This document shows positions 16 to 40,828 of a stretch of DNA of 40,828 nucleotides, in pieces. Below the pieces are notes generated by a model, which worked only from the letters and a program-made list of their open reading frames with translations, did not search any database and was not told the DNA's origin. The position numbers and the translations under genes are program-made. Within the stretch, counting starts at the first letter, position 1; each line of letters opens with the position of its first letter. The stretch lies in UHGV virus genome UHGV-0352991, one strand, 5' to 3'. The DNA comes from a virus.

Positions 16-357
16 CTATACCTCCTGTTCTGCCGGCTCATATGGTAAAGCCAGACATCTGTTATAAAGATCTTCTCCGGTTCCATTTCCACCCAATGCT
101 TTATATGGCCTGAACATATACTCCAGATTGTCTCTGTCTTCCAAGGTACAATATTTCCTTTTTAAATAAAATGTACATGCCTGGTAAAGACGGTCATGGA
201 GGAGTGCCAGAACTCCTGCGTTAATAGCATTTGTTCTGGCACGATCAGCCTTTAACTGTTTGGATAATTTATGATATGCTCCGGAAAGCAATACAGAGAT
301 GATCCCAAGCACCCATGAAACCCAATGCACAGATATGTACTGCATGATTGATTCCAT
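16..357 (-). CDS. Holin-like membrane protein (single N-terminal TM, LL-H-holin-like architecture)
   Basis: N-terminal hydrophobic helix HWVSWVLGIISVLLSGAY followed by a charged soluble tail. It lies downstream of the tail-fibre genes, where lysis genes usually sit. Confidence 0.35.
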   Translation of the reverse strand: MESIMQYISVHWVSWVLGIISVLLSGAYHKLSKQLKADRARTNAINAGVLALLHDRLYQACTFYLKRKYCTLEDRDNLEYMFRPYKALGGNGTGEDLYNRCLALPYEPAEQEV

Positions 358-2804: not shown

Positions 2805-4998
2805 TGCTCATATCCCTCCTTGCCTTTATGGTGCCGGACAATGCCCCATTAAACTTCAATGTATGTTCATATATCCGCAACAGCAGATCCGGAACGTATT
2901 TATTTTCCAGGAATACAATATCATTTGCATCAATACGCGGTTCTCCACGATATTCCAGATCATATTCCCGGTCAGAACGCAGATAATCTCCGATCCATTC
3001 AGCAAGATCTGCTGCATGATTTGACGTAGATACAAGCGGATTTTCCCACGTTTCAACAGTTCCTGTGGGATTTAACTGTCTGGTCACAAGCGCCTGTGTT
3101 ACATTGTATTCATATCCATTTATGGTCACTTCCGTATCTGCTCCACCGTCAACCTCTACCGTAACGTAATATGCGCTGCTATCAATGATCTGGACATTTG
3201 TGCCACCAGCTGCATCTATTTCATAATCATAAGCCGCTGCATTAAGATAAAACGTATGCCTGGTTTCGTCTGCCGGGACAGCCTCCCTGACTAATTGTCT
3301 CTTTTCAGTCCCTGATGTATAAATTGTCCTGGTCATCTGCAACTCTCTGACTCTTGATAACTGTGTACCCTTTGGCGTCTTAGTAAGCTCCTTGCCGTAA
3401 GACAGTTCATAATCAGTACTGTCCCCAAATGTGATCTGTTTCAGGTTTACCCTGTTAAACGGTACTCCCTTTAAAAATTCAAGCTGCAGCTTATCAAATT
3501 CCGGGAATTCATGATTGACCACAGTAACTTCAGAAAGAGAAGATATTTTATACTCTTCCACCAGTTCCTCTCCCAAATAGGAACGGAATACCATACCAGA
3601 CGGATGATTACCTCCAAATTCCAATGTAAGGCCAAAGCACTTGTACCGCGCTTCCAGAACGATAGTCACCAATGAATCTTCTGTAAATGCCCCATCTTCA
3701 TCAGCTACTGCTTCCGATACATATCCCACATCCAGATAGTTTTTATCCTGATATGGTAAAAAGAACTGTACAGCTGATGCTTCTGTATGATCCTTTTCCG
3801 GTGTGGCATAAGTGCTTTTTTCTGTTGCATCCAGTACTGAAGCCGTATTAGAAAAGTAAGTTTCATTTGCTGAACTTGCCTGCATGTCCGGTATAAAACT
3901 GGACTTCATAAATATATTTCCGTTCCGGTCCTGGTAAAGAATACAGCGTCCGGCATTTGCGATCAGCTGCAGTGCTTCTTTATGGGATACTACTGGCATT
4001 GGATTATAAACCATAACATCTTTTAGATAATTATCAAGCCAATAGGTACGGCTGTCTATTCCGGCATCGCCAAAGACATCAACTGCAAGATCATACAGGC
4101 TTATTCCATCAGGATAATATTTTCCGCAGCGGTAAGTTCCGTCCATGCCATCAAAACGATCTGTAGCAGTAAAACTCATTTCTTCATCATCTGCAGACCA
4201 TTCCCGCAGATATACCGTGGTACCGGGCATCCACTCCACATTTCCATCATCCAGCTCCTGACCGTAAATTACATTGATCTCCTGGCCATTTTCCAGGAAA
4301 TTTACCGTACTCTCTTCATTTTCAATGTCATATGCACGGTTTTTATTATCAATGGTTATGTTCAGATCAATGGATGGCAGATCTTCCATAACAGGACTGA
4401 TCCGCTCTTTCTTTGTGGCTGACAATATCTTCTGGTTATCAAAGTAGATGCCGATCCCCATCGTGATACGGTGGATCCGCAGCCGGCTTTGCCCATTGAC
4501 CATATCCTTTGGCACAAACCGGAGAAATGTTGCACCAGGAAAGATCTCTTCCGTCACAAAATGCCCTGTATCATTCCCTGTGATCTCAACCGTATGTTCA
4601 TCTGATACAATGGAAAAATCCACAGGATACGCTTTGCCAAATTCTACTGTGAGACCTTTTATATCGTGCTGTACCGGAAAACAGATCTCAACCTCACCTA
4701 AAAGATCATCTGTAACGATCCCCTGGTTAAGGACTGCATCCTGACGTTCCCTTGGCAAAAAATACATACTCCCATCTACGGTACTGTAATCCTGGTCACA
4801 GGTTTCATACAGTTCCGAAACCTCATAGTTGTTGAGTGGCCAGGTCAGATTGCTATAATAAGCATATTTCTCCTGGTCAGGTATATAAGCAGATGCCTGG
4901 GCCTCCTGATTGATCAGGCCAATACTGACGCGCATATAGGAATGATCACGATACTGCTTTTTCATTTCCTGTTTATATGCATTGCTTACAGCTTGCAT
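2767..4998 (-). CDS. Large tail structural protein (tail tip / hub-like, 743 aa)
   Basis: A large ORF two genes downstream of the tape measure, which is the typical position of a tail tip or tail-associated protein. Confidence 0.6.
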   Translation of the reverse strand: MQAVSNAYKQEMKKQYRDHSYMRVSIGLINQEAQASAYIPDQEKYAYYSNLTWPLNNYEVSELYETCDQDYSTVDGSMYFLPRERQDAVLNQGIVTDDLLGEVEICFPVQHDIKGLTVEFGKAYPVDFSIVSDEHTVEITGNDTGHFVTEEIFPGATFLRFVPKDMVNGQSRLRIHRITMGIGIYFDNQKILSATKKERISPVMEDLPSIDLNITIDNKNRAYDIENEESTVNFLENGQEINVIYGQELDDGNVEWMPGTTVYLREWSADDEEMSFTATDRFDGMDGTYRCGKYYPDGISLYDLAVDVFGDAGIDSRTYWLDNYLKDVMVYNPMPVVSHKEALQLIANAGRCILYQDRNGNIFMKSSFIPDMQASSANETYFSNTASVLDATEKSTYATPEKDHTEASAVQFFLPYQDKNYLDVGYVSEAVADEDGAFTEDSLVTIVLEARYKCFGLTLEFGGNHPSGMVFRSYLGEELVEEYKISSLSEVTVVNHEFPEFDKLQLEFLKGVPFNRVNLKQITFGDSTDYELSYGKELTKTPKGTQLSRVRELQMTRTIYTSGTEKRQLVREAVPADETRHTFYLNAAAYDYEIDAAGGTNVQIIDSSAYYVTVEVDGGADTEVTINGYEYNVTQALVTRQLNPTGTVETWENPLVSTSNHAADLAEWIGDYLRSDREYDLEYRGEPRIDANDIVFLENKYVPDLLLRIYEHTLKFNGALSGTIKARRDMSNVATAKNRLAGQ

Positions 4999-5375
4999 TA
5001 TTCTATCACCCCGCAGTCTATGATGTTGACCTTACAGTCCCGGTACTTTGTAGGAAGCCCTGATCCATTAAATTCGACCGGCGTGGCTGTACGGTTTCCC
5101 GGATACATGCGGATCGTCTGGAAACGATTGTTTACCATATCCGGGATCCGGGCGGTAACTACAAATTTGTCAAATTCCTGCAACATAGCTGACCAGGTAG
5201 CTGCGTCCAGGAATTTCCACTGCAATGCATCGAATTTATACTGATCCCTGCCAACCTTCTGTCCAACAAATTCGCCATTTGCGTTTTTTCCGGAGCTGAC
5301 ATTGGTTGCGACCACAAGATTACCACCTACATCAGGAGCCGGGAACTCCCGGCCATTGATCGTTATTACTGCCAT
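4998..5375 (-). CDS. Minor tail protein (125 aa) immediately after the tape measure
   Basis: Its position mirrors lambda gpM-like or distal tail proteins. It is translationally coupled to its neighbours. Confidence 0.5.
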   Translation of the reverse strand: MAVITINGREFPAPDVGGNLVVATNVSSGKNANGEFVGQKVGRDQYKFDALQWKFLDAATWSAMLQEFDKFVVTARIPDMVNNRFQTIRMYPGNRTATPVEFNGSGLPTKYRDCKVNIIDCGVIE

Positions 5376-5389
5376 TTGTTGCCGCCTCC

Positions 5390-8300
5390 TTACGTTGTTC
5401 TTAACGTGTAACCGCTTCTCTTTTCCAGATCCGTCAGTTTCTTCTTTACATCACGGATATCAATGCTCACTGTCAGGTCCATGGCTTCGATCAGGTCCAC
5501 AATGCGCTCTAAGAGTTCCTGGATGCGCGCGATACGTGAATCATCCATACCGGTACCATTCTGTGATAATGCCACAGCACGGCTTACCAGGTTCATAAGC
5601 CTGTCATCATCATTTTCATAAACAGCTGCACGGCCTGTTACTGCCAGCGGCGGTGCTGCATTACCTGCTACACTTGACATCATGGATACAAGCGGAGCCA
5701 TGCAGGAACACATGCCGTTCTGGACTGCCTGGGTAATGCCCTGGGTGATCTGCTGGTTATTGGCAACTGCAGCACGGCCGCCCCAGCTTCCAACCATCTC
5801 CGGGATACCGTCTTCACGGGCGATAAACATCTGACCAGATTTAGGGAAGCCACCGGAAGCATGACCTGATACCGGTGAATTGGTACCATAATCCCAATCA
5901 TCACTGTCATCTGCTTCCTCATCATCTTCTGCATCTTCTTTAGCACTCTTGAAAATACTCTTTGCACCTTCTACAATGCCATCCCAGACACCACCGACAA
6001 AATCAGCACAGCCCTGTAGCCATCCGGCAATGGAACCCCAGACGGATTTTAAGCCGTCCCAGAGTTTGTTCATGATGCTCTTTCCGACCTCGATCATTGC
6101 ATCCGGTTTAAACACTTCTTTGATCTTTTTCCAGATATCTTCAAACCAATCCTTGATAGCGTTCCATTTTTCTTCAATAGTCCTTTTTACACTGTCCCAG
6201 ATCTCGGAAAGCTTGTCTCTGATCGCTTCGAAAATAGATGTCGCAAGAGCTTTGATCGTATTCCATAGATTAGATGCAAATGCCTTGATCTGGTTCCACT
6301 TAGTTTCCCAGGCTGTTTTTATCAGTTCAAGCGTACTGGATATGAACACCTTAACCGCATCGATGGCATTATTTATTGTCTTTTTAATTGCTTCCCAGGC
6401 TTCGGCTGCAAACTTTTTGACTTCATCCCAATGCTGATACAGAAGAACTCCAGCCGTAATCAGCGCTGTTATAGCAATGATAACAAAACCGATCGGACTG
6501 GTAAGGAATGCAATAGCCGCACCTAAAGCAGTAGTAACCGTTGTTGCGATCGCACATACAGCATTCCAAGCCACTGTAGCTGCAGTCATGGCAATCTGAG
6601 CTGCGGTATCTGCTATCTTTGCTGCTGTATTGATAACAAACTGGGCCGCCTGCTGCACCAGGGCCGCTGTTCCTTGCGCCAGGTTTACTACAAAATCTTT
6701 GGCATACATAGCAACAATAGCGGCTGTCTCCAGCTTATCTGCTATAAGCGCTGCTGTATGTGTTGCAATAGCAGCCGCATTTGCTACAAAACCAGCTACC
6801 ATTCCAGAAAGCATTGATACGACGCCACCAGCATTAATGATGAATTCACCAAGTTTTACAACTTCCCATGCCCCAAAGAAAGCAGCAACAACTCCAATAG
6901 CTCCGTCAAAGCGTGTCTGAGTTTCTGTTATCCAGTCCACAACTGAAGATATCGCTTCTGTAAATGCATCAAATACTGGCTTTGCAACAGTATCATAAGC
7001 TGTATTCAGGCCATCCCATATCTTATCAATTAATTCTTTCAGCTTATCAAATATAGGCTGCAGTTCGTCTAATAGCCCCTGTATCCGTTCTTTGATCTGA
7101 CCAGCATTATCGGTTATAGGCTTTGTTATAACCTGCATCAGATCCCGGACAAATTTACTGCCTAATTTTGTAACTCCCATAAAGGAACTACTGAAAATAC
7201 CTATTATATCAGCTGTGATCTGTTTCGCTGAGTCACTGCGAAATACAGTAAAGATCCCTGCAATGGAACTTGTGAAATTTCCAACTAATGTCGCAATCTC
7301 ACCGCCAATATTAAACATCTGGATCAGATAATCTTTAATACGGTCCTTATTCTGTTCAAGGTACCTGCTGATACCTCCCAGAAGATTATCTGCAATACTC
7401 GCACCGATGCTTGCAATGGAACCTGTAACCTGTCCTAATGACTGGGCCAGTGTATTGGCAAAACCTAAAGCCGCTGTCTGCACATCAGAATCAGTAAAAA
7501 TATTCCCAAGGCTGTCTTTTATGGACTGGATGCTGCTTTGGATCGAATCAAATACAGATGTGTCGCCAAAAGCATCCCAAAAACCACTTGTAAAAGAATC
7601 TTTTAACTGGTTCAGCAGGTCAGCTATCTTCCGCAGCTTACCACTGACTATATCTTCCTGTTCCGGAAGTGTTCCCATATCAAAGTCATCTGCATTGTAG
7701 CCGCCTGCTCCACTACCGCCAGATCCGCTTCCGCTATCTGAACCACTATCCGGGTTTAAGATATTAAGCTCATCAATACCAGTGGTAGCCGTTTTGATAT
7801 CCTTAGCAGCTTTCTTTGCAGCATTCCCAGCACCGGAAGCAGCCGTTCCAGCTTTATCTGCTGCGACAGCTACAGCTTCCATACCAGCTGCAGTTGCGGA
7901 TGCTCCTGAATCTTTACCACCAGACATCAAGGCAAAAAAAGCTTTAAATGCATTCGCCAGGCTGAGTATTTTACCAATGACTGCGTTGATCACCTGGATG
8001 ACCGGGGATAATGCAGCTATAAGCCCCTGTCCTATGGTTGCCTTTAAGCTGTCAAACTGCAGCTGTAAGATACGGGCCTGGTTCGCCCAGCCAGTGGATG
8101 TCCTGGAGAAGTCACCTGCTGCCGTTGTCAGCTGATCCTGTACAAACTTATACCGCAGGGCAACCTTTTCCATTTCCGACATCTTTGCTGTAGTCTTTCC
8201 GAAGCCATTTGCCATAGCATAGCTGTCAAGAGCCGTCTGGGTCATAACAATGCCCAGGTCTTTCAGGCTTTCTGTTTCACCAGTGAATACAGACTTTAAC

Positions 8301-9127: not shown

Positions 9128-9419
9128 AAGCCTCCGGAGTCATCTGCTCCATCTGATGTTTACGCCAGCTGTCATAGATCCTTTGCTGATCAATGGTAAA
9201 ATGTTTGATCACATTATCATCTGTTTCAGAACGTATCGCTACCACCCGGCCCAGGGGAGTTTCCGGTCCAAGTCCGGCCAGCAGGGAACGGAACTCATCC
9301 CAGCTGACCGTTTCAAACTCTTTCGTCCTTATACGCAACCCGTACTGCGTCATGAAACTGGAAATGATCAGGTCCCAGTCTTCAAACAGGTCGTAGTACG
9401 GGTCAGTGCTCTCCCTGGC
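9069..9419 (-). CDS. Tail assembly chaperone T-segment (possible frameshift extension of G)
   Basis: This reading frame is open from 9419, so it overlaps the last five codons of the upstream chaperone ORF. The first ATG is at 9353. Confidence 0.45.
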   Translation of the reverse strand, partial: ARESTDPYYDLFEDWDLIISSFMTQYGLRIRTKEFETVSWDEFRSLLAGLGPETPLGRVVAIRSETDDNVIKHFTIDQQRIYDSWRKHQMEQMTPEAYDREMEGLERMFAALCGGG

Positions 9420-20320: not shown

Positions 20321-20342
20321 ATACTGATAGCAACTAAAATCA

Positions 20343-20416
20343 TCGGAACGGAAGGATTCGAACCCTCGACACACTGGTTATAAGCCAGCTGCTCTTACCA
20401 ACTGAGCTACGTTCCA
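20343..20416 (-). tRNA. tRNA, anticodon UAU (Ile2-like, reads AUA); 74 nt, no encoded CCA
   Basis: Manual cloverleaf: acceptor UGGAACG/CGUUCCG, D-arm GCUC-AGUUGGUAA-GAGC, anticodon stem GCUGG/CCAGU with loop CUUAUAA, T-arm GAGGG-UUCGAAU-CCUUC. Confidence 0.6.
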
Positions 20417-20532
20417 AGGGGGAGACAGCAAGCTTTCACCTGCTGCCTAGTGGGGTTTGACGTAAGCCGCCGGCCGTATGCCTTTGGCTTCCACTCTATT
20501 GTATAACGACATCACCGACTAAACCGACCTTT

Positions 20533-33588: not shown

Positions 33589-33617
33589 ATTGACTTGCTT
33601 CTGAAAATATCCTATAA
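33589..33617 (+). promoter_or_regulatory. Consensus sigma-70-type promoter TTGACT-17-TATAAT (probable repressor promoter) embedded among operator repeats
   Basis: TTGACTtgcttctgaaaatatccTATAAT read directly. The 13-mer GATTTTTTCAGAA occurs at ~33681 and ~33748, with an inverted copy at ~33566. Confidence 0.5.
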
Positions 33618-33782
33618 TCAAATTGTCAAGTAAGATTATCGAAAAATTCAGAGGCATTATTTATATCTCCGTATTTTGCGATTTTTTCAGAACCTTATGG
33701 TTACATTATACGCGATTTATTCAGAATGTCAACAGGAATTTTTGCGATTTTTTCAGAAATTAGAAAAGGACGCAAAATAGGC

Positions 33783-37999: not shown

Positions 38000-39145
38000 A
38001 TGCCAAGAAGAAAAAAGCACAGCCGCCTTCCCAACGGCTACGGCTCCATCCGCTACCTGGGAAAAAACCGGAAGAACCCATATGCAGTCCATCCGCCTGC
38101 AAATATCGACGGTGACCGCCCTGCAGCCCTCTGTTACGTTGATGACTGGATGAAGGGCTTCATCATACTGACTGCCTACAAAGCCGGCACTTATAAGCCT
38201 GGTATGGAAAAGGACCTGCAAGTATTATCTACAGACGAAAAGGATCTGGACACTCTGGCTCAGAAGCTCATGGCAGACTACAGCCTGATCAAGGGCGTAA
38301 CTCCACCAGAAAAGCCTAAGACCTTTGCAGACGTCTACCAGCTTTTCTATGCGAGAAAATTCCGCGAAGGCAATAAACTTTCAAAAAGCAGTAAAGATTC
38401 TATGAGAGCAGCCTACAGAAACTGTTCTATTCTTCATGATCGCCCATGGAACTCTTTAAAATCAGTCGATTTTCAAAATGTTTTAGACAACTGCCCTCTT
38501 AAGTATAGTAGCATCGAACTAATACGAAACCTTTTTCGCCAAATGTGTACTTTTGCCGTAGATACCGATATTTCTGATAAGAATTACGGACAAAAACTGA
38601 TAATCAATAAAGACGATGATGATGAACATGGCGTTCCACTTACTACCAGGGATTTATTGACTTTATGGTGCCATTCAGATAATGACACTGTAGAATTGCT
38701 CTTAATACTCTGCTATTCCGGCTGGCGTATTAATGAGGTTCCTAAATTACGCGTTGATCTGGAGAATGGTTACTACGAAGGCGGCATAAAAACCAAAGCT
38801 GGCAAAGACAGGATTGTTCCTATTCATTCTTCTGTCTATCCTCTTGTAAAACGCCGATATGAAAGATATGGCACTCTTTTACCTATAAGCACATGCGCTT
38901 TCAGGCAAAACATGTACCAGGTCTTAGCACAGTTGGGAATAGAAAAACACACACCACATGACTGCCGACACACATTCTCAAAATTTTGTGAACTCTATCA
39001 TGTAAATGAAAATGACAGAAAACGCATGCTTGGACATTCCTTTGGAAATGATGTTACTAACCGTGTTTACGGTCACCGTGATTTAAAAGATCTGAAAATG
39101 GAAATTGAGAAAATAGATAAAGAATATTTTGTGACTTTATTGTGA
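38000..39145 (+). CDS. int: Tyrosine site-specific integrase
   Basis: C-terminal catalytic region HDCRHTF ... LGHS...YGH (R-H-R-Y residues). It sits at the edge of the lysogeny module. Confidence 0.85.
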   Translation: MPRRKKHSRLPNGYGSIRYLGKNRKNPYAVHPPANIDGDRPAALCYVDDWMKGFIILTAYKAGTYKPGMEKDLQVLSTDEKDLDTLAQKLMADYSLIKGVTPPEKPKTFADVYQLFYARKFREGNKLSKSSKDSMRAAYRNCSILHDRPWNSLKSVDFQNVLDNCPLKYSSIELIRNLFRQMCTFAVDTDISDKNYGQKLIINKDDDDEHGVPLTTRDLLTLWCHSDNDTVELLLILCYSGWRINEVPKLRVDLENGYYEGGIKTKAGKDRIVPIHSSVYPLVKRRYERYGTLLPISTCAFRQNMYQVLAQLGIEKHTPHDCRHTFSKFCELYHVNENDRKRMLGHSFGNDVTNRVYGHRDLKDLKMEIEKIDKEYFVTLL

Positions 39146-39396: not shown

Positions 39397-40164
39397 TTAT
39401 TTTACAAGGCCCGGATAATGGAGGGCGCCGTCCTGATCCGGAGTTAGGACTACTGGTTCAGTTGCCATGCGGCCGGTCTGATCCAGGTAGTACCACTTAC
39501 CACTGATCGTCTGAAGGCCTTTGAGCATGGCACCGTCAGGGCCAAGGTAATACCAGGAACCTTTGTATTGGTACCAGGTGTCATGGACCATCATTCCGGC
39601 ACCGTCGAACCAGTACCACTTATCACCGTCCTGCTGCCATTTGTCAGAGACGTATTCCCCGGATCCATCATCTTTATAGAAACGCCAACCGCCATTTTCC
39701 TGCTGCCAGCCCGTCTTAATTGTAACAGGTGTTAAAAATAGTTTTCGTTCTTCCTGGCGTCTCCTAGTAAGGCCTGCAAGGACCTTTCCGCCAGCTTTAT
39801 TGTATTCCAGGATCTTAGCCGCTATCTCAGAACGGGTACGAGCGCCTTTAGCCGTCAATCCATCAATGCTTCCGATGTTGTACGCAAAACTTACTAAGGC
39901 ATCATACTCGTTCTGGTTCCAGTTGTAAGCACTATACTTATCCACCTTTGGACCATACTTTTTATCTACAGACTGTCTTAACCAGTCATCTGCTGTAGCC
40001 TGACTGATTTTCAAGCCCTGACAGATGGTTGTGCCGGTAATGGCTTTATCTGCGTTAGTGGTGCCATAGCCGATAGTCCAGACACCTACAGCATCCTGGT
40101 AGGCGGTCAGGCGGCAGCCTTCAAATTTTTTTATGAGATTTAATCCATTATCTGATATTTTCAT
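39397..40164 (-). CDS. Endolysin: N-terminal lysozyme domain + C-terminal cell-wall-binding (choline-binding-type YG/WY) repeats
   Basis: LIKKFEGCRLTAYQDAVGVWTIGYG lysozyme signature. Repeats KWYWFDGAGMM, GSWYYLGPDGAM and GKWYYLDQTGRM. Confidence 0.8.
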   Translation of the reverse strand: MKISDNGLNLIKKFEGCRLTAYQDAVGVWTIGYGTTNADKAITGTTICQGLKISQATADDWLRQSVDKKYGPKVDKYSAYNWNQNEYDALVSFAYNIGSIDGLTAKGARTRSEIAAKILEYNKAGGKVLAGLTRRRQEERKLFLTPVTIKTGWQQENGGWRFYKDDGSGEYVSDKWQQDGDKWYWFDGAGMMVHDTWYQYKGSWYYLGPDGAMLKGLQTISGKWYYLDQTGRMATEPVVLTPDQDGALHYPGLVK

Positions 40165-40191
40165 AGCATTTCCTTTCTTCCAAATGGTATC

Positions 40192-40221
40192 TTGAAAAGA
40201 TTTTCTGCATATGCTATAATG
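40192..40221 (+). promoter_or_regulatory. Strong sigma-70-type promoter TTGAAA-17-TATAAT driving a short antisense RNA
   Basis: TTGAAAagattttctgcatatgcTATAAT read directly. Confidence 0.5.
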
Positions 40222-40226
40222 CCGTT

Positions 40227-40305
40227 AGGCAAAAAGAAATAAGTTTCCATGTTGGACACAAAAGCGAAAGCCCCTGAGTGGTCGAGACTCAGGGGCTTTC
40301 TTCCT
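40227..40305 (+). ncRNA. Candidate antitoxin sRNA (RNA II-like) of an Fst-type type I TA
   Basis: It runs from the promoter above to the bidirectional terminator. Bases 40230-40260 directly repeat 40393-40425, the antisense of the toxin RBS and start codon. Confidence 0.4.
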
Positions 40306-40309
40306 TTTT
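40266..40309. terminator. Bidirectional intrinsic terminator (AGCCCCTGAGT-loop-ACTCAGGGGCT + T-tract)
   Basis: An 11-bp perfect stem, then TTTCTTCCTTTTTT on the plus strand and TTCGCTTTT on the minus strand. Confidence 0.55.
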
Positions 40310-40331
40310 TAGCAGTTAGGCATCTGCAGGC

Positions 40332-40418
40332 TGGTTACCGACTATTTGCCGCCGTCCAACCATTTGATGATGTAGTGGCAAACTACACCAGCCGCAACAG
40401 CGACAATAAAAGAAATAA
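40332..40418 (-). CDS. Fst/Ldr-like type I toxin peptide (28 aa: MENLISFIVAVAAGVVCHYIIKWLDGGK)
   Basis: Strong RBS AAGGAAAGGGGG. Single TM helix plus charged tail. It is similar in length and pattern to Fst (MKDLMSLVIAPIFVGLVLEMISRVLDEEDDSRK). An extended -10 TGTTATAAT lies upstream. Confidence 0.4.
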
Positions 40419-40511
40419 GATTTTCCATGTCAGACACCCCCTTTCCTTACCGGGTATAGGGGCGGTAACTTTGATATTATAACATATGCATGATTTTTAT
40501 TCTACTGATTT

Positions 40512-40527
40512 ATTGCGACGTCGCAAT
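40512..40527. promoter_or_regulatory. 16-bp perfect palindrome ATTGCGACGTCGCAAT (copy 3 of 3), ~40 bp upstream of the toxin-peptide promoter
   Basis: Read directly. Confidence 0.5.
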
Positions 40528-40577
40528 TGGCAGCCATAACCCGGACTGCCTGCGGGAGATAGTCGGATCACCTCCTT

Positions 40578-40828
40578 CTACTTCTTGCTTGCCTGTTTGA
40601 TGACCTGGTGCGCTCCGGTTGCTGCCAGCCCGGATACAATGCCAATGGCTGCAGCGTTGATCACATCTGTTGCTGGAAACTCCGGCATGAGGTACATACC
40701 TGCTACACCCAGGATACCACCGGTCACTCCGCATACTACCGGGATAACCTCATCCTTGACCTTAGTAGTTGCCTTGCAGGCCATGCCACCAAGATAACAG
40801 ATTGCTGTGATCGCTGTTACACTTCCAA
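40578..40828 (-). CDS. Holin (partial; ORF open to the window edge)
   Basis: Hydrophobic helices GVTGGILGVAGMYLM and AAIGIVSGLAATGA with a charged C-terminus. The frame stays open upstream of the annotated Met to position 40828. It lies next to the endolysin. Confidence 0.5.
   Translation of the reverse strand, partial: GSVTAITAICYLGGMACKATTKVKDEVIPVVCGVTGGILGVAGMYLMPEFPATDVINAAAIGIVSGLAATGAHQVIKQASKK

Follow-up and report, generated by a model that had tools for sequence, protein, structure and literature searches.

A temperate phage of gut Clostridia carries a probable type I toxin-antitoxin module of the par/Fst family between its holin and endolysin genes

UHGV virus genome UHGV-0352991, analysed here over its whole length of 40,828 nucleotides (hereafter the window), corresponds to a temperate phage genome of ~40.8 kb in circularly permuted form. 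Between two of its minus-strand lysis genes, a holin gene upstream and an endolysin gene downstream, the interval 40150-40580 contains a small module made of a gene for a short hydrophobic peptide, a convergent gene predicted to specify a small RNA (sRNA), and a terminator common to both. Judging from its anatomy and from its relatives in sequence collections, this module is very probably a toxin-antitoxin (TA) system of type I and of the par/Fst kind, present as an autonomous insertion (moron) in a temperate phage of Lachnospiraceae-type gut Clostridia. The Fst/Ldr toxin family, par-type regulation and the presence of type I TAs on prophages are already known, and members of this family have been described in Clostridium bolteae and C. 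asparagiforme (PMC2887945; PMC6563280).

The predicted toxin coding sequence (CDS), retrieved from the list of open reading frames (ORFs), lies at 40342..40428 on the minus strand, with its ATG at 40428 and its stop codon at 40342-40344, and encodes a peptide of 28 aa, MENLISFIVAVAAGVVCHYIIKWLDGGK. In it, a transmembrane (TM) helix is followed by an invariant Trp and by a tail that is short and charged, the layout of the Fst/Ldr family being a hydrophobic predicted TM helix followed by a conserved Trp and a charged C-terminus. The mean hydropathy of its core, residues 4-21, is 2.4. The tail is particularly short (KWLDGGK); those of its relatives are rich in D, K and N and reach 12 residues. 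The Shine-Dalgarno (SD) sequence AAAGGGGGTG precedes the ATG with a spacer of 6 nt, in agreement with an earlier sequence-only reading of this DNA, which had recognized a hydrophobic peptide of 28 aa on the minus strand with a strong ribosome-binding site. An alternative start at the GTG at 40437, giving an ORF of 31 aa, is unlikely because this GTG sits within the SD. The exact 31-aa form is found in the NCBI nr database under the title 'MAG TPA: toxin [Caudoviricetes sp.]'.

Upstream of this gene, the extended -10 element that the same reading had proposed is present as TGTTATAAT (40476..40484 on the minus strand, read from 40484 to 40476). It forms an inverted repeat with the -10 element of the antitoxin promoter (pair I1) and is accompanied, 17 nt upstream, by a weak -35 element, TAGAAT, matching the consensus at 3/6 positions. 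The predicted toxin mRNA, the analogue of RNA I of the par locus, spans ~212 nt (40257..40469, minus strand). Its minimum free energy (MFE) fold reaches -82.1 kcal/mol (z = -4.8 relative to shuffled sequences) and includes a long-range helix joining codons 4-6 to the region located 5' of the terminator. At its 5' end, a stem-loop at 40435..40464 pairs an anti-SD, CGCCCCU (40458-40464), with the SD, GGGGGUG (40435-40441), in both the MFE and the centroid folds. Another 5' hairpin, GUUACC/GGUAAC, seemed to covary when examined by eye and was rejected, GTTACC being partnered by GGCAA as often as by GGTAA.

A perfect palindrome of 16 nt, ATTGCGACGTCGCAAT, is located at 40512-40527, just upstream of the toxin promoter, where it overlaps a second promoter-like site of the minus strand (TTGCGA-16-TAGAAT). 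It is identical in a related locus, L247, despite the different toxin and sRNA allele of the latter, and could be the operator of a regulator.

Facing the toxin gene, the antitoxin promoter TTGAAA-17-TGcTATAAT (40192..40220, plus strand) matches the sigma-70 consensus at 11/12 positions and has the additional TG. Only four sites with this score are found on both strands of the whole 40.8-kb window, against a mean of 1.0 in block shuffles, and the near-consensus plus-strand promoter seen by the sequence-only reading therefore ranks among the four best of the window. At the level of sequence motifs, the two promoters are convergent, as in par-like loci. The predicted antitoxin sRNA, the analogue of RNA II, extends over ~82 nt (40227..40310, plus strand), its ends being deduced from the promoter and the terminator. 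It folds at -32.3 kcal/mol (z = -4.3) with a largely unstructured 5' end and the terminator hairpin at its 3' end. These predicted lengths, ~212 nt for the mRNA and ~82 nt for the sRNA, replace the ~190 nt and ~75 nt initially suggested.

The intrinsic terminator (40266..40300) acts on paper in both directions, with a perfect stem of 14 bp (40266-40279/40287-40300), a loop of 7 nt and T-runs on both strands, and it forms the terminal hairpin in the folds of both the mRNA and the sRNA. The element had previously been described as a perfect 11-bp bidirectional terminator; its shared and bidirectional nature stands, while the length of the perfect stem has to be corrected to 14 bp. As this terminator is common to both transcripts, their 3' ends are fully complementary.

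A second region of complementarity is provided by a diverged direct repeat. Its first copy (40232..40259, plus strand) is carried by the sRNA and, as RNA, is antisense to 40408-40437; its second copy (40408..40437, minus strand) lies in the toxin translation-initiation region (TIR), the putative target of the sRNA, and takes in, besides the 3' edge of the SD and the spacer, the AUG with codons 2-7. Both copies are identical at 26/30 positions, with one gap of 2 nt. A repeat had been noticed before, at 40230-40260 and 40393-40425, and it proves to be real, with its second copy misplaced by ~12-15 nt relative to the actual 40408-40437.

The predicted duplex between the 5' end of the sRNA and the first 90 nt of the toxin mRNA reaches -39.1 kcal/mol. 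Dinucleotide-shuffled sequences gave -15.9 +/- 2.9 kcal/mol, the best of 1000 being at -28.0, which places the real duplex at z = -8.1. Pairing occurs in blocks of 16, 12 and 4 bp separated by 2-nt bulges, and the two mismatches seen at the DNA level in the second block become G·U pairs in the RNA duplex. The proposal that the sRNA can pair with the toxin initiation region is thus borne out by a predicted duplex extending over the SD edge, the AUG and codons 2-7. The energy by itself is not unique, since a control with 6276 further 39-mers of the window, from which the antisense strand of the toxin was excluded, yielded one unrelated site, at 9244 on the minus strand, that reached -41.4 kcal/mol. 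Cofolding of the full-length transcripts is uninformative on pairing at the initiation region, as the trivial 3' overlap dominates the result.

The assignment to the Fst/par family is supported first by RNA homology. The toxin mRNA (40469..40257, minus strand) matches the Rfam family RF02442 (SpF66_sRNA) with 52.4 bits for a gathering score of 42 (E 2.8e-11), and this match covers positions 1-239 of the 239 of the model, with low-confidence stretches in the coding part. It starts at 40469, 7 nt downstream of the toxin -10 element. Among related loci, one on an E. faecium plasmid also passes the threshold (45.8 bits) and three from gut Clostridia fall just below it. F66 is a 239-nt RNA of Streptococcus pneumoniae TIGR4 located between SP2168 and SP2169 (PMC3395615). 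In the pneumococcal fcsR-adcA intergenic region, Fozo et al. described two Fst homologues arranged in tandem, for which they detected an antisense sRNA of ~65-75 nt and reported Fst-B to be toxic (PMC2887945); PneumoBrowse assigns the neighbouring F67/srn503 to the Fst family (PMC12323649). Moreover, the SpF66 consensus, as read from the Rfam alignment, itself encodes a peptide ending in ...CKWLDGKE. SpF66 is the toxin mRNA of the pneumococcal fst locus in the fcsR-adcA intergenic region, and the RF02442 match is consequently a match to a par-type toxin mRNA, because the position of F66 is that of the validated fst locus and its consensus encodes this peptide.

Peptide homology leads to the same family. 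In an alignment of 40 diverse members of the clade (A1), V15, Y19, W23 and L24 are invariant, W23 being present in 40/40, and the consensus is MxxxxSFLxSVxAGVAxHYICKWLD followed by a D/K/N-rich tail. Profile-profile comparison of A1 with seven Fst toxins annotated at NCBI (A2), performed with hhalign, gave a homology probability of 96.2% and an E-value of 2.3e-9 at full length, over 33 aligned columns. The resulting alignment has a single gap, of one residue, exactly at the Pro of the Fst PXXXG motif. In pairwise BLASTP, the window peptide also aligns with an Fst-like toxin of Enterococcus, unannotated in its own record, with an E-value of 3e-5.

Following the definition of par-like loci given by Weaver in 2020 (PMC7472228), the module shows promoters in convergent orientation, one bidirectional terminator for both transcripts, direct repeats carried by opposite transcripts and a predicted SD-sequestering 5' stem-loop. 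The same definition includes an upstream helix at the 5' end (5'-UH) that makes RNA I stable; in the MFE fold of the window mRNA, the helix of this long-range kind is the one between codons 4-6 and the region 5' of the terminator. The RNA I/RNA II logic of the par locus put forward by the sequence-only reading is therefore sustained by the architecture, the RF02442 match, the peptide homology and the comparative data presented below.

Relatives were gathered by tblastn and with a degenerate DNA pattern for the conserved peptide block. The tblastn search with the peptide retrieved 74 plasmid records and 8 phage records. The plasmid matches comprise 52 from Enterococcus and 7 from Ligilactobacillus salivarius, together with small plasmids of Mediterraneibacter gnavus, Waltera, Mogibacterium and Amedibacterium, and plasmids from uncultured bacteria. 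At the nucleotide level, blastn of the 431-bp region on the phage collection gave only two short matches, both in 'bajarodino virus' records. The DNA pattern identified 79 IMG/VR loci and at least 120 species genomes; among the matches listed, the latter are overwhelmingly Lachnospiraceae (including Blautia, Dorea, Roseburia, Enterocloster, Mediterraneibacter and Acetatifactor), with Oscillospiraceae and Faecalibacterium also represented. In all inspected loci, a promoter and a C-rich leader precede the SD and the peptide; next come the bidirectional terminator, a copy of the TIR of the locus itself and an inverted TGCTATAAT with a TTGAAA/TTGCAA promoter. In a set of 164 distinct modules, a terminator stem of 8 bp or more is seen in 157 and the inverted -10 box in 150; the two occur together and in the expected order in 132.

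In these modules, the pairing partners co-evolve. Cognate sRNA/TIR duplexes have a mean energy of -35.7 kcal/mol, compared with -16.3 for non-cognate ones, and the cognate partner ranks first in 49 of 58 modules. A natural swap is provided by loci L247-L253, where the holin is 95.6% identical to that of the window, the promoter regions on either side are near-identical and the lysozyme is similar, yet the toxin TIR, the sRNA repeat and the terminator stem all differ from those of the window and have changed in concert. The mismatches between the two repeat copies are themselves asymmetric: 149 of the 270 recorded in 134 modules are G·U-compatible transitions and only 23 are of the reverse type (A·C), which at the level of modules corresponds to 78 biased toward G·U and 7 in the reverse direction. 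Such a strand-specific bias would be expected only if the toxin mRNA and the sRNA pair.

The repeat copies are never identical in the 134 related modules, and a bulge of 1-4 nt is constantly found just after the start codon. This imperfection may itself be selected, for example for avoidance of RNase III or for tuning of affinity.

The SD and its anti-SD also co-vary: an SD of the GGGGG type is associated with an upstream CCCC in 34 modules and GGAGG/GGGAGG with CCUCC or CUCCC in 17, only one module being mismatched. With leaders of fixed 5' end, the median probability of the SD being paired across the family is 0.94, compared with 0.70 for shuffled leaders.

The module is found in a variety of genomic settings. 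In the window, it is flanked upstream by a holin gene of the Hol44 family (40578..40828, minus strand; Pfam PF16079, E 2.3e-21), which is cut by the end of the window and encodes 87 aa in unpermuted relatives, and downstream by an endolysin gene (39397..40164, minus strand) for a GH24 phage lysozyme with cell-wall-binding repeats (PF00959, E 4.6e-32; PF01473). The start codon of the endolysin gene is separated from the antitoxin -35 element by 28 nt only. At least five arrangements beside lysis genes were observed: Hol44 holin, TA and GH24 lysozyme, as in the window; r1t-type holin, TA and CHAP endolysin; Hol44 holin, TA and M15 peptidase endolysin; holin_4_1, M15 endolysin and TA; and glucosaminidase/amidase endolysin followed by the TA. 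In all of them the toxin is co-oriented with the lysis genes (26/26 endolysin neighbours and 32/32 holin neighbours). Outside lysis cassettes, modules occur on Rep_1 rolling-circle plasmids and other small plasmids, beside integrases and repressors, and in chromosomes.

Presence and absence were compared in 65 phage loci having a window-like holin and enough downstream sequence, collected with a pattern loose enough for H-L variants such as L247. A toxin gene is located ~210 nt after the holin stop codon in 30 of them, with at least six alleles and some tandem pairs. The 35 others are devoid of the toxin gene, including some with a holin 100% identical to that of the window, and in module-free loci the endolysin gene begins 10 or 108 nt after the holin. 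Since identical holins occur with and without the module, the latter behaves as an insertion dispensable for lysis, and its presence on plasmids without lysis genes indicates that it is not an intrinsic lysis component. The initial description of a module inside the lysis cassette was thus correct as to its position; what the position holds is an insertion, present or absent among relatives and also carried by plasmids without lysis genes.

Several related loci show further rearrangements. In L064 (~4980-7000), L071, L236 and L242, the holin and the 5' part of the toxin gene are the same as in the window, while after ...KWLDG a pair of genes resembling those of a response regulator and a histidine kinase takes the place of the toxin tail, of the terminator and of the entire sRNA gene; an apparently orphan toxin ORF, MENLISFIVAVAAGVVCHYIIKWLDGVSHS, is left in loci of this type. 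Tandem modules were found in L016/L025, L028, L073, L091, L209 and L218/L229/L238, and two copies are present in several phage and plasmid-like contigs. A metagenome-assembled genome of an uncultured Faecalibacterium (L151) has four copies within 8 kb. Tandem copies each have a different toxin and TIR allele. Small circular records from rodent faeces, classified as Inoviridae, carry the module without annotation: PQ006100.1 ('bajarodino virus 68', L001), PQ006166 and PQ006183. In PQ006100, the tail of the toxin gene (last codons and stop, ~27 nt) overlaps the end of a CDS annotated 'DNA binding protein' on the opposite strand.

These elements suggest the following mechanism. The minus strand would be transcribed into an mRNA of ~212 nt encoding a single-helix membrane peptide of 28 aa, and the 5' leader of this mRNA would fold so that the C-rich anti-SD occludes the very strong SD. 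The stronger convergent promoter would produce the sRNA of ~82 nt, which would pair with the toxin mRNA twice, through the complementary 3' ends across the terminator and, in trans, through its 5' end by means of the diverged repeat. The latter pairing, with the SD edge, the AUG and codons 2-7, would block ribosome binding. As long as the element is present, the sRNA would keep the toxin silent; following the loss of the prophage, or of the plasmid in other members, the sRNA would decay and the toxin would arrest or kill the cell, the element being stabilised in this way. We infer from the family that both RNAs are made, that the sRNA is in excess and less stable than the mRNA, that the peptide is toxic to the membrane and that the carrier is stabilised by post-segregational killing. 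A precedent for a maintenance role exists in C. difficile, where type I TAs stabilise the prophage phiCD630-1 (PMC7699646).

A number of observations weigh against the proposed assignment and mechanism. A P/D/S/T-XXX-G(C) motif is found in the TM helix of most Fst/Ldr members and its Pro is essential for the toxicity of Fst-pAD1 and Lpt (PMC7472228); the window peptide lacks the Pro of PXXXG and has A-VAA-G instead, and across A1 the equivalent site opens with A, S or T and closes with G, S, E, D or N. In searches with E-values up to 10, no NCBIfam model matched the window peptide, the Fst model NF033608 included, and its Pfam matches comprised no Fst family; a PDB profile search gave no match. 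Four of the 40 relatives match NF033608 over the full profile, all below threshold (24.3 bits at best for a cut-off of 26). In the comparison with Fst/Ldr hidden Markov models suggested by the sequence-only reading, the curated models are unmatched and homology to Fst appears by profile-profile alignment. In the window, the SD is paired with a probability of 0.998, against 0.98 for its shuffled leaders, so that SD occlusion considered in this sequence alone cannot be separated from an effect of composition, a C-rich leader being sufficient. For 123 leaders aligned with MAFFT, RNAalifold found no consensus 5' structure. The U-turn motif YUNR, which in par loci lies in the terminator loop of the toxin mRNA and starts the interaction, occurs as CUCG within the window loop CUCGACC, and in only 26 of the 157 loops of the family. 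The counts of co-variation and of mismatches are drawn from related sequences and not from independent events. Finally, a terminator separating the holin from the endolysin seems a costly feature in a lysis operon, and a maintenance role does not account for this recurrent position.

Beside maintenance, a functional type I TA could have been selected for defence, by abortive infection or superinfection exclusion, or for competition between co-resident prophages, which we regard as possible though not favoured. The allelic diversity at a single site is very high, with at least six toxin/sRNA alleles after near-identical holins, some of them in tandem, and allele-specific recognition fits diversifying selection and avoidance of cross-talk; prophage TA systems are also known to act in phage exclusion (PMC8621323; PMC7699646). 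However, the sequence does not discriminate defence from maintenance, and the plasmid-borne members fit the classical maintenance role.

The same TA could otherwise be wired into the lytic programme. Late transcription starting from the holin gene would cross the toxin gene and, in antisense, the sRNA gene, and would shut down or titrate the sRNA; the toxin, produced as infection ends, would serve as an auxiliary lysis factor depolarising the membrane. In the lysogen, the terminator and the sRNA would help to keep the endolysin silent. With the module in place, holin and endolysin are separated by a strong terminator and by a promoter in convergent orientation, and the endolysin would be reached only by read-through; no sigma-70-like promoter was found by the promoter scan on the minus strand between 40300 and 40164. 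The recurrence of the module beside lysis genes in at least five arrangements, always co-oriented, speaks for such a role, as does the complete complement of the sRNA that late transcripts reading through the module would include, and hokW-sokW of prophage Sp5, which is induced upon prophage induction and doubles phage release, offers a precedent (PMC8621323). Nevertheless, the module is also carried by small Rep_1 and other plasmids, beside integrases or repressors and in chromosomes without lysis genes; holins 100% identical to that of the window occur with and without it, hence it is dispensable for lysis; and co-orientation is common among phage morons generally. A role in the lytic programme would account for the recurrent co-oriented placement, but plasmid-borne members and sister phages without the TA speak against its being the general function, and it seems unlikely. 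A more elaborate scheme, in which the module would have been placed on purpose, the abundant sRNA (perfectly complementary to the endolysin 5' leader) and the terminator insulating and silencing the endolysin in the lysogen, late read-through after induction running into the sRNA and titrating it so that the peptide is freed as a timed helper of lysis (a lysis clock), and allele swaps avoiding cross-silencing between co-resident prophages, is in our view improbable.

It is very unlikely that the downstream copy of the repeat is only a remnant of the toxin 5' end left by a partial tandem duplication, with no functional sRNA and with the peptide as an ordinary small membrane protein of the lysis cassette. 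This copy does resemble a truncated second toxin start (ORF MSNMET..., 40161-40259), and full tandem copies exist in relatives. But it is flanked by a near-consensus convergent promoter and a shared terminator that are kept in most of the 164 modules, it tracks its own toxin through extensive divergence, and its mismatch spectrum is strand-asymmetric in the direction of RNA pairing, an asymmetry that a decaying relic would not show. Of the holin family models, only PF09682 was retrieved with the window peptide, below its threshold, with an E-value of 0.12-0.16 and 13 bits for a cut-off of 24.9. As for the plus-strand ORF of 77 aa (40249-40482), antisense to the toxin, it is the longest of the interval, but it is almost certainly not a real gene, for it lacks an SD, crosses the terminator hairpin and lacks conservation, as only 37 of 162 distinct modules keep an antisense frame open over the toxin CDS.

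Elsewhere in the window, a tyrosine integrase gene (38000-39145, plus strand) converges on the endolysin gene, and the ORF at 16-357 (minus strand) corresponds to the gene preceding the holin in the unpermuted relatives L012, L024 and L067. Two divergent near-consensus sigma-70-like promoters, TTGACT-17-TATAAT at 33590 (plus strand) and TTGACA-16-TATAAT at 33732 (minus strand), are located at the start of the plus-strand gene block; they represent two of the only four 11/12-scoring sites of the window and probably mark the lysis-lysogeny switch region. The phage also carries a tRNA-Ile with anticodon TAT (20342-20417, minus strand). On a C. perfringens plasmid with the module (L009), an unrelated tetrahydrofolate riboswitch (RF01831, 91 bits) was identified at 390-491 on the minus strand, upstream of the S component of a folate ECF transporter.

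The modules described here form a large Fst/par-type clade, frequent on mobile elements of Clostridia from human and animal guts, with more than 160 distinct modules, mostly from Lachnospiraceae and Oscillospiraceae. This clade spans phages, small plasmids and chromosomes and is almost entirely unannotated; most of its peptides escape the current Pfam and NCBIfam models, and gut phages and plasmids would therefore be better annotated with a family profile. The allele series, with identical flanks, co-swapped TIR and sRNA, and mismatches biased toward G·U, constitutes a data set on the evolution of antisense specificity, and the recurrent co-oriented placement, within lysis cassettes or at their end, connects type I TAs with phage lysis or prophage stability in a way that can be tested. 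The size of the clostridial clade, the co-swapped allele series at one phage site and the repeated placement in lysis cassettes are absent from the literature searched, in which no paper was found for motif strings such as YICKWLD either.

Among known systems, the closest in organization is the par locus of the E. faecalis plasmid pAD1 (Fst, RNA I, RNA II), with which the module shares convergent promoters, a bidirectional terminator common to both transcripts, direct repeats in opposite directions and an SD-hiding 5' stem-loop, as well as a peptide of ~30 aa in which a TM helix is joined through a W/V-L-D junction to a charged tail (PMC7472228). This layout was also read directly in pTEF1 and in six other annotated Fst loci. 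In contrast to pAD1 par, the window peptide is one residue short at the Pro of PXXXG (AVAAG) and has a very short tail (GGK), the clade has a conserved HY-I-(I/C)-K-W-L-D block and a U-turn motif that is not conserved, and the carrier is a phage of anaerobic gut Clostridia and not a plasmid of Lactobacillales. The S. pneumoniae fst-A/fst-B locus (F66/srn502, i.e. RF02442) is likewise similar, its model being matched end to end by the toxin mRNA and the same CKWLDG junction being present; unlike the window module, the pneumococcal toxin has a DXXXG motif and is encoded in the chromosome, between fcsR and adcA.

The TAs of the C. difficile prophages phiCD630-1 and phiCD630-2 (CD0977.1-RCd11 and others) are also prophage-borne type I systems in a gut Clostridia host; they are located near the prophage ends and were shown to stabilise the prophage (PMC7699646). 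The profile of the C. difficile type I toxins (NCBIfam NF047374, CD_typeI_toxin) has 51 positions for the 28 aa of the window peptide, which does not match it, and 13 of the 40 clade members give weak N-terminal matches, 18-23 profile positions long and of at most 24.6 bits for a cut-off of 60. In the same way, hokW-sokW of the E. coli O157 prophage Sp5 is a prophage-borne type I TA with a membrane peptide, and its toxin, made on prophage induction, aids phage release (PMC8621323). It differs from the window module by its unrelated Hok family toxin, its coupling to mok, its 5' antisense RNA and its Gram-negative host.

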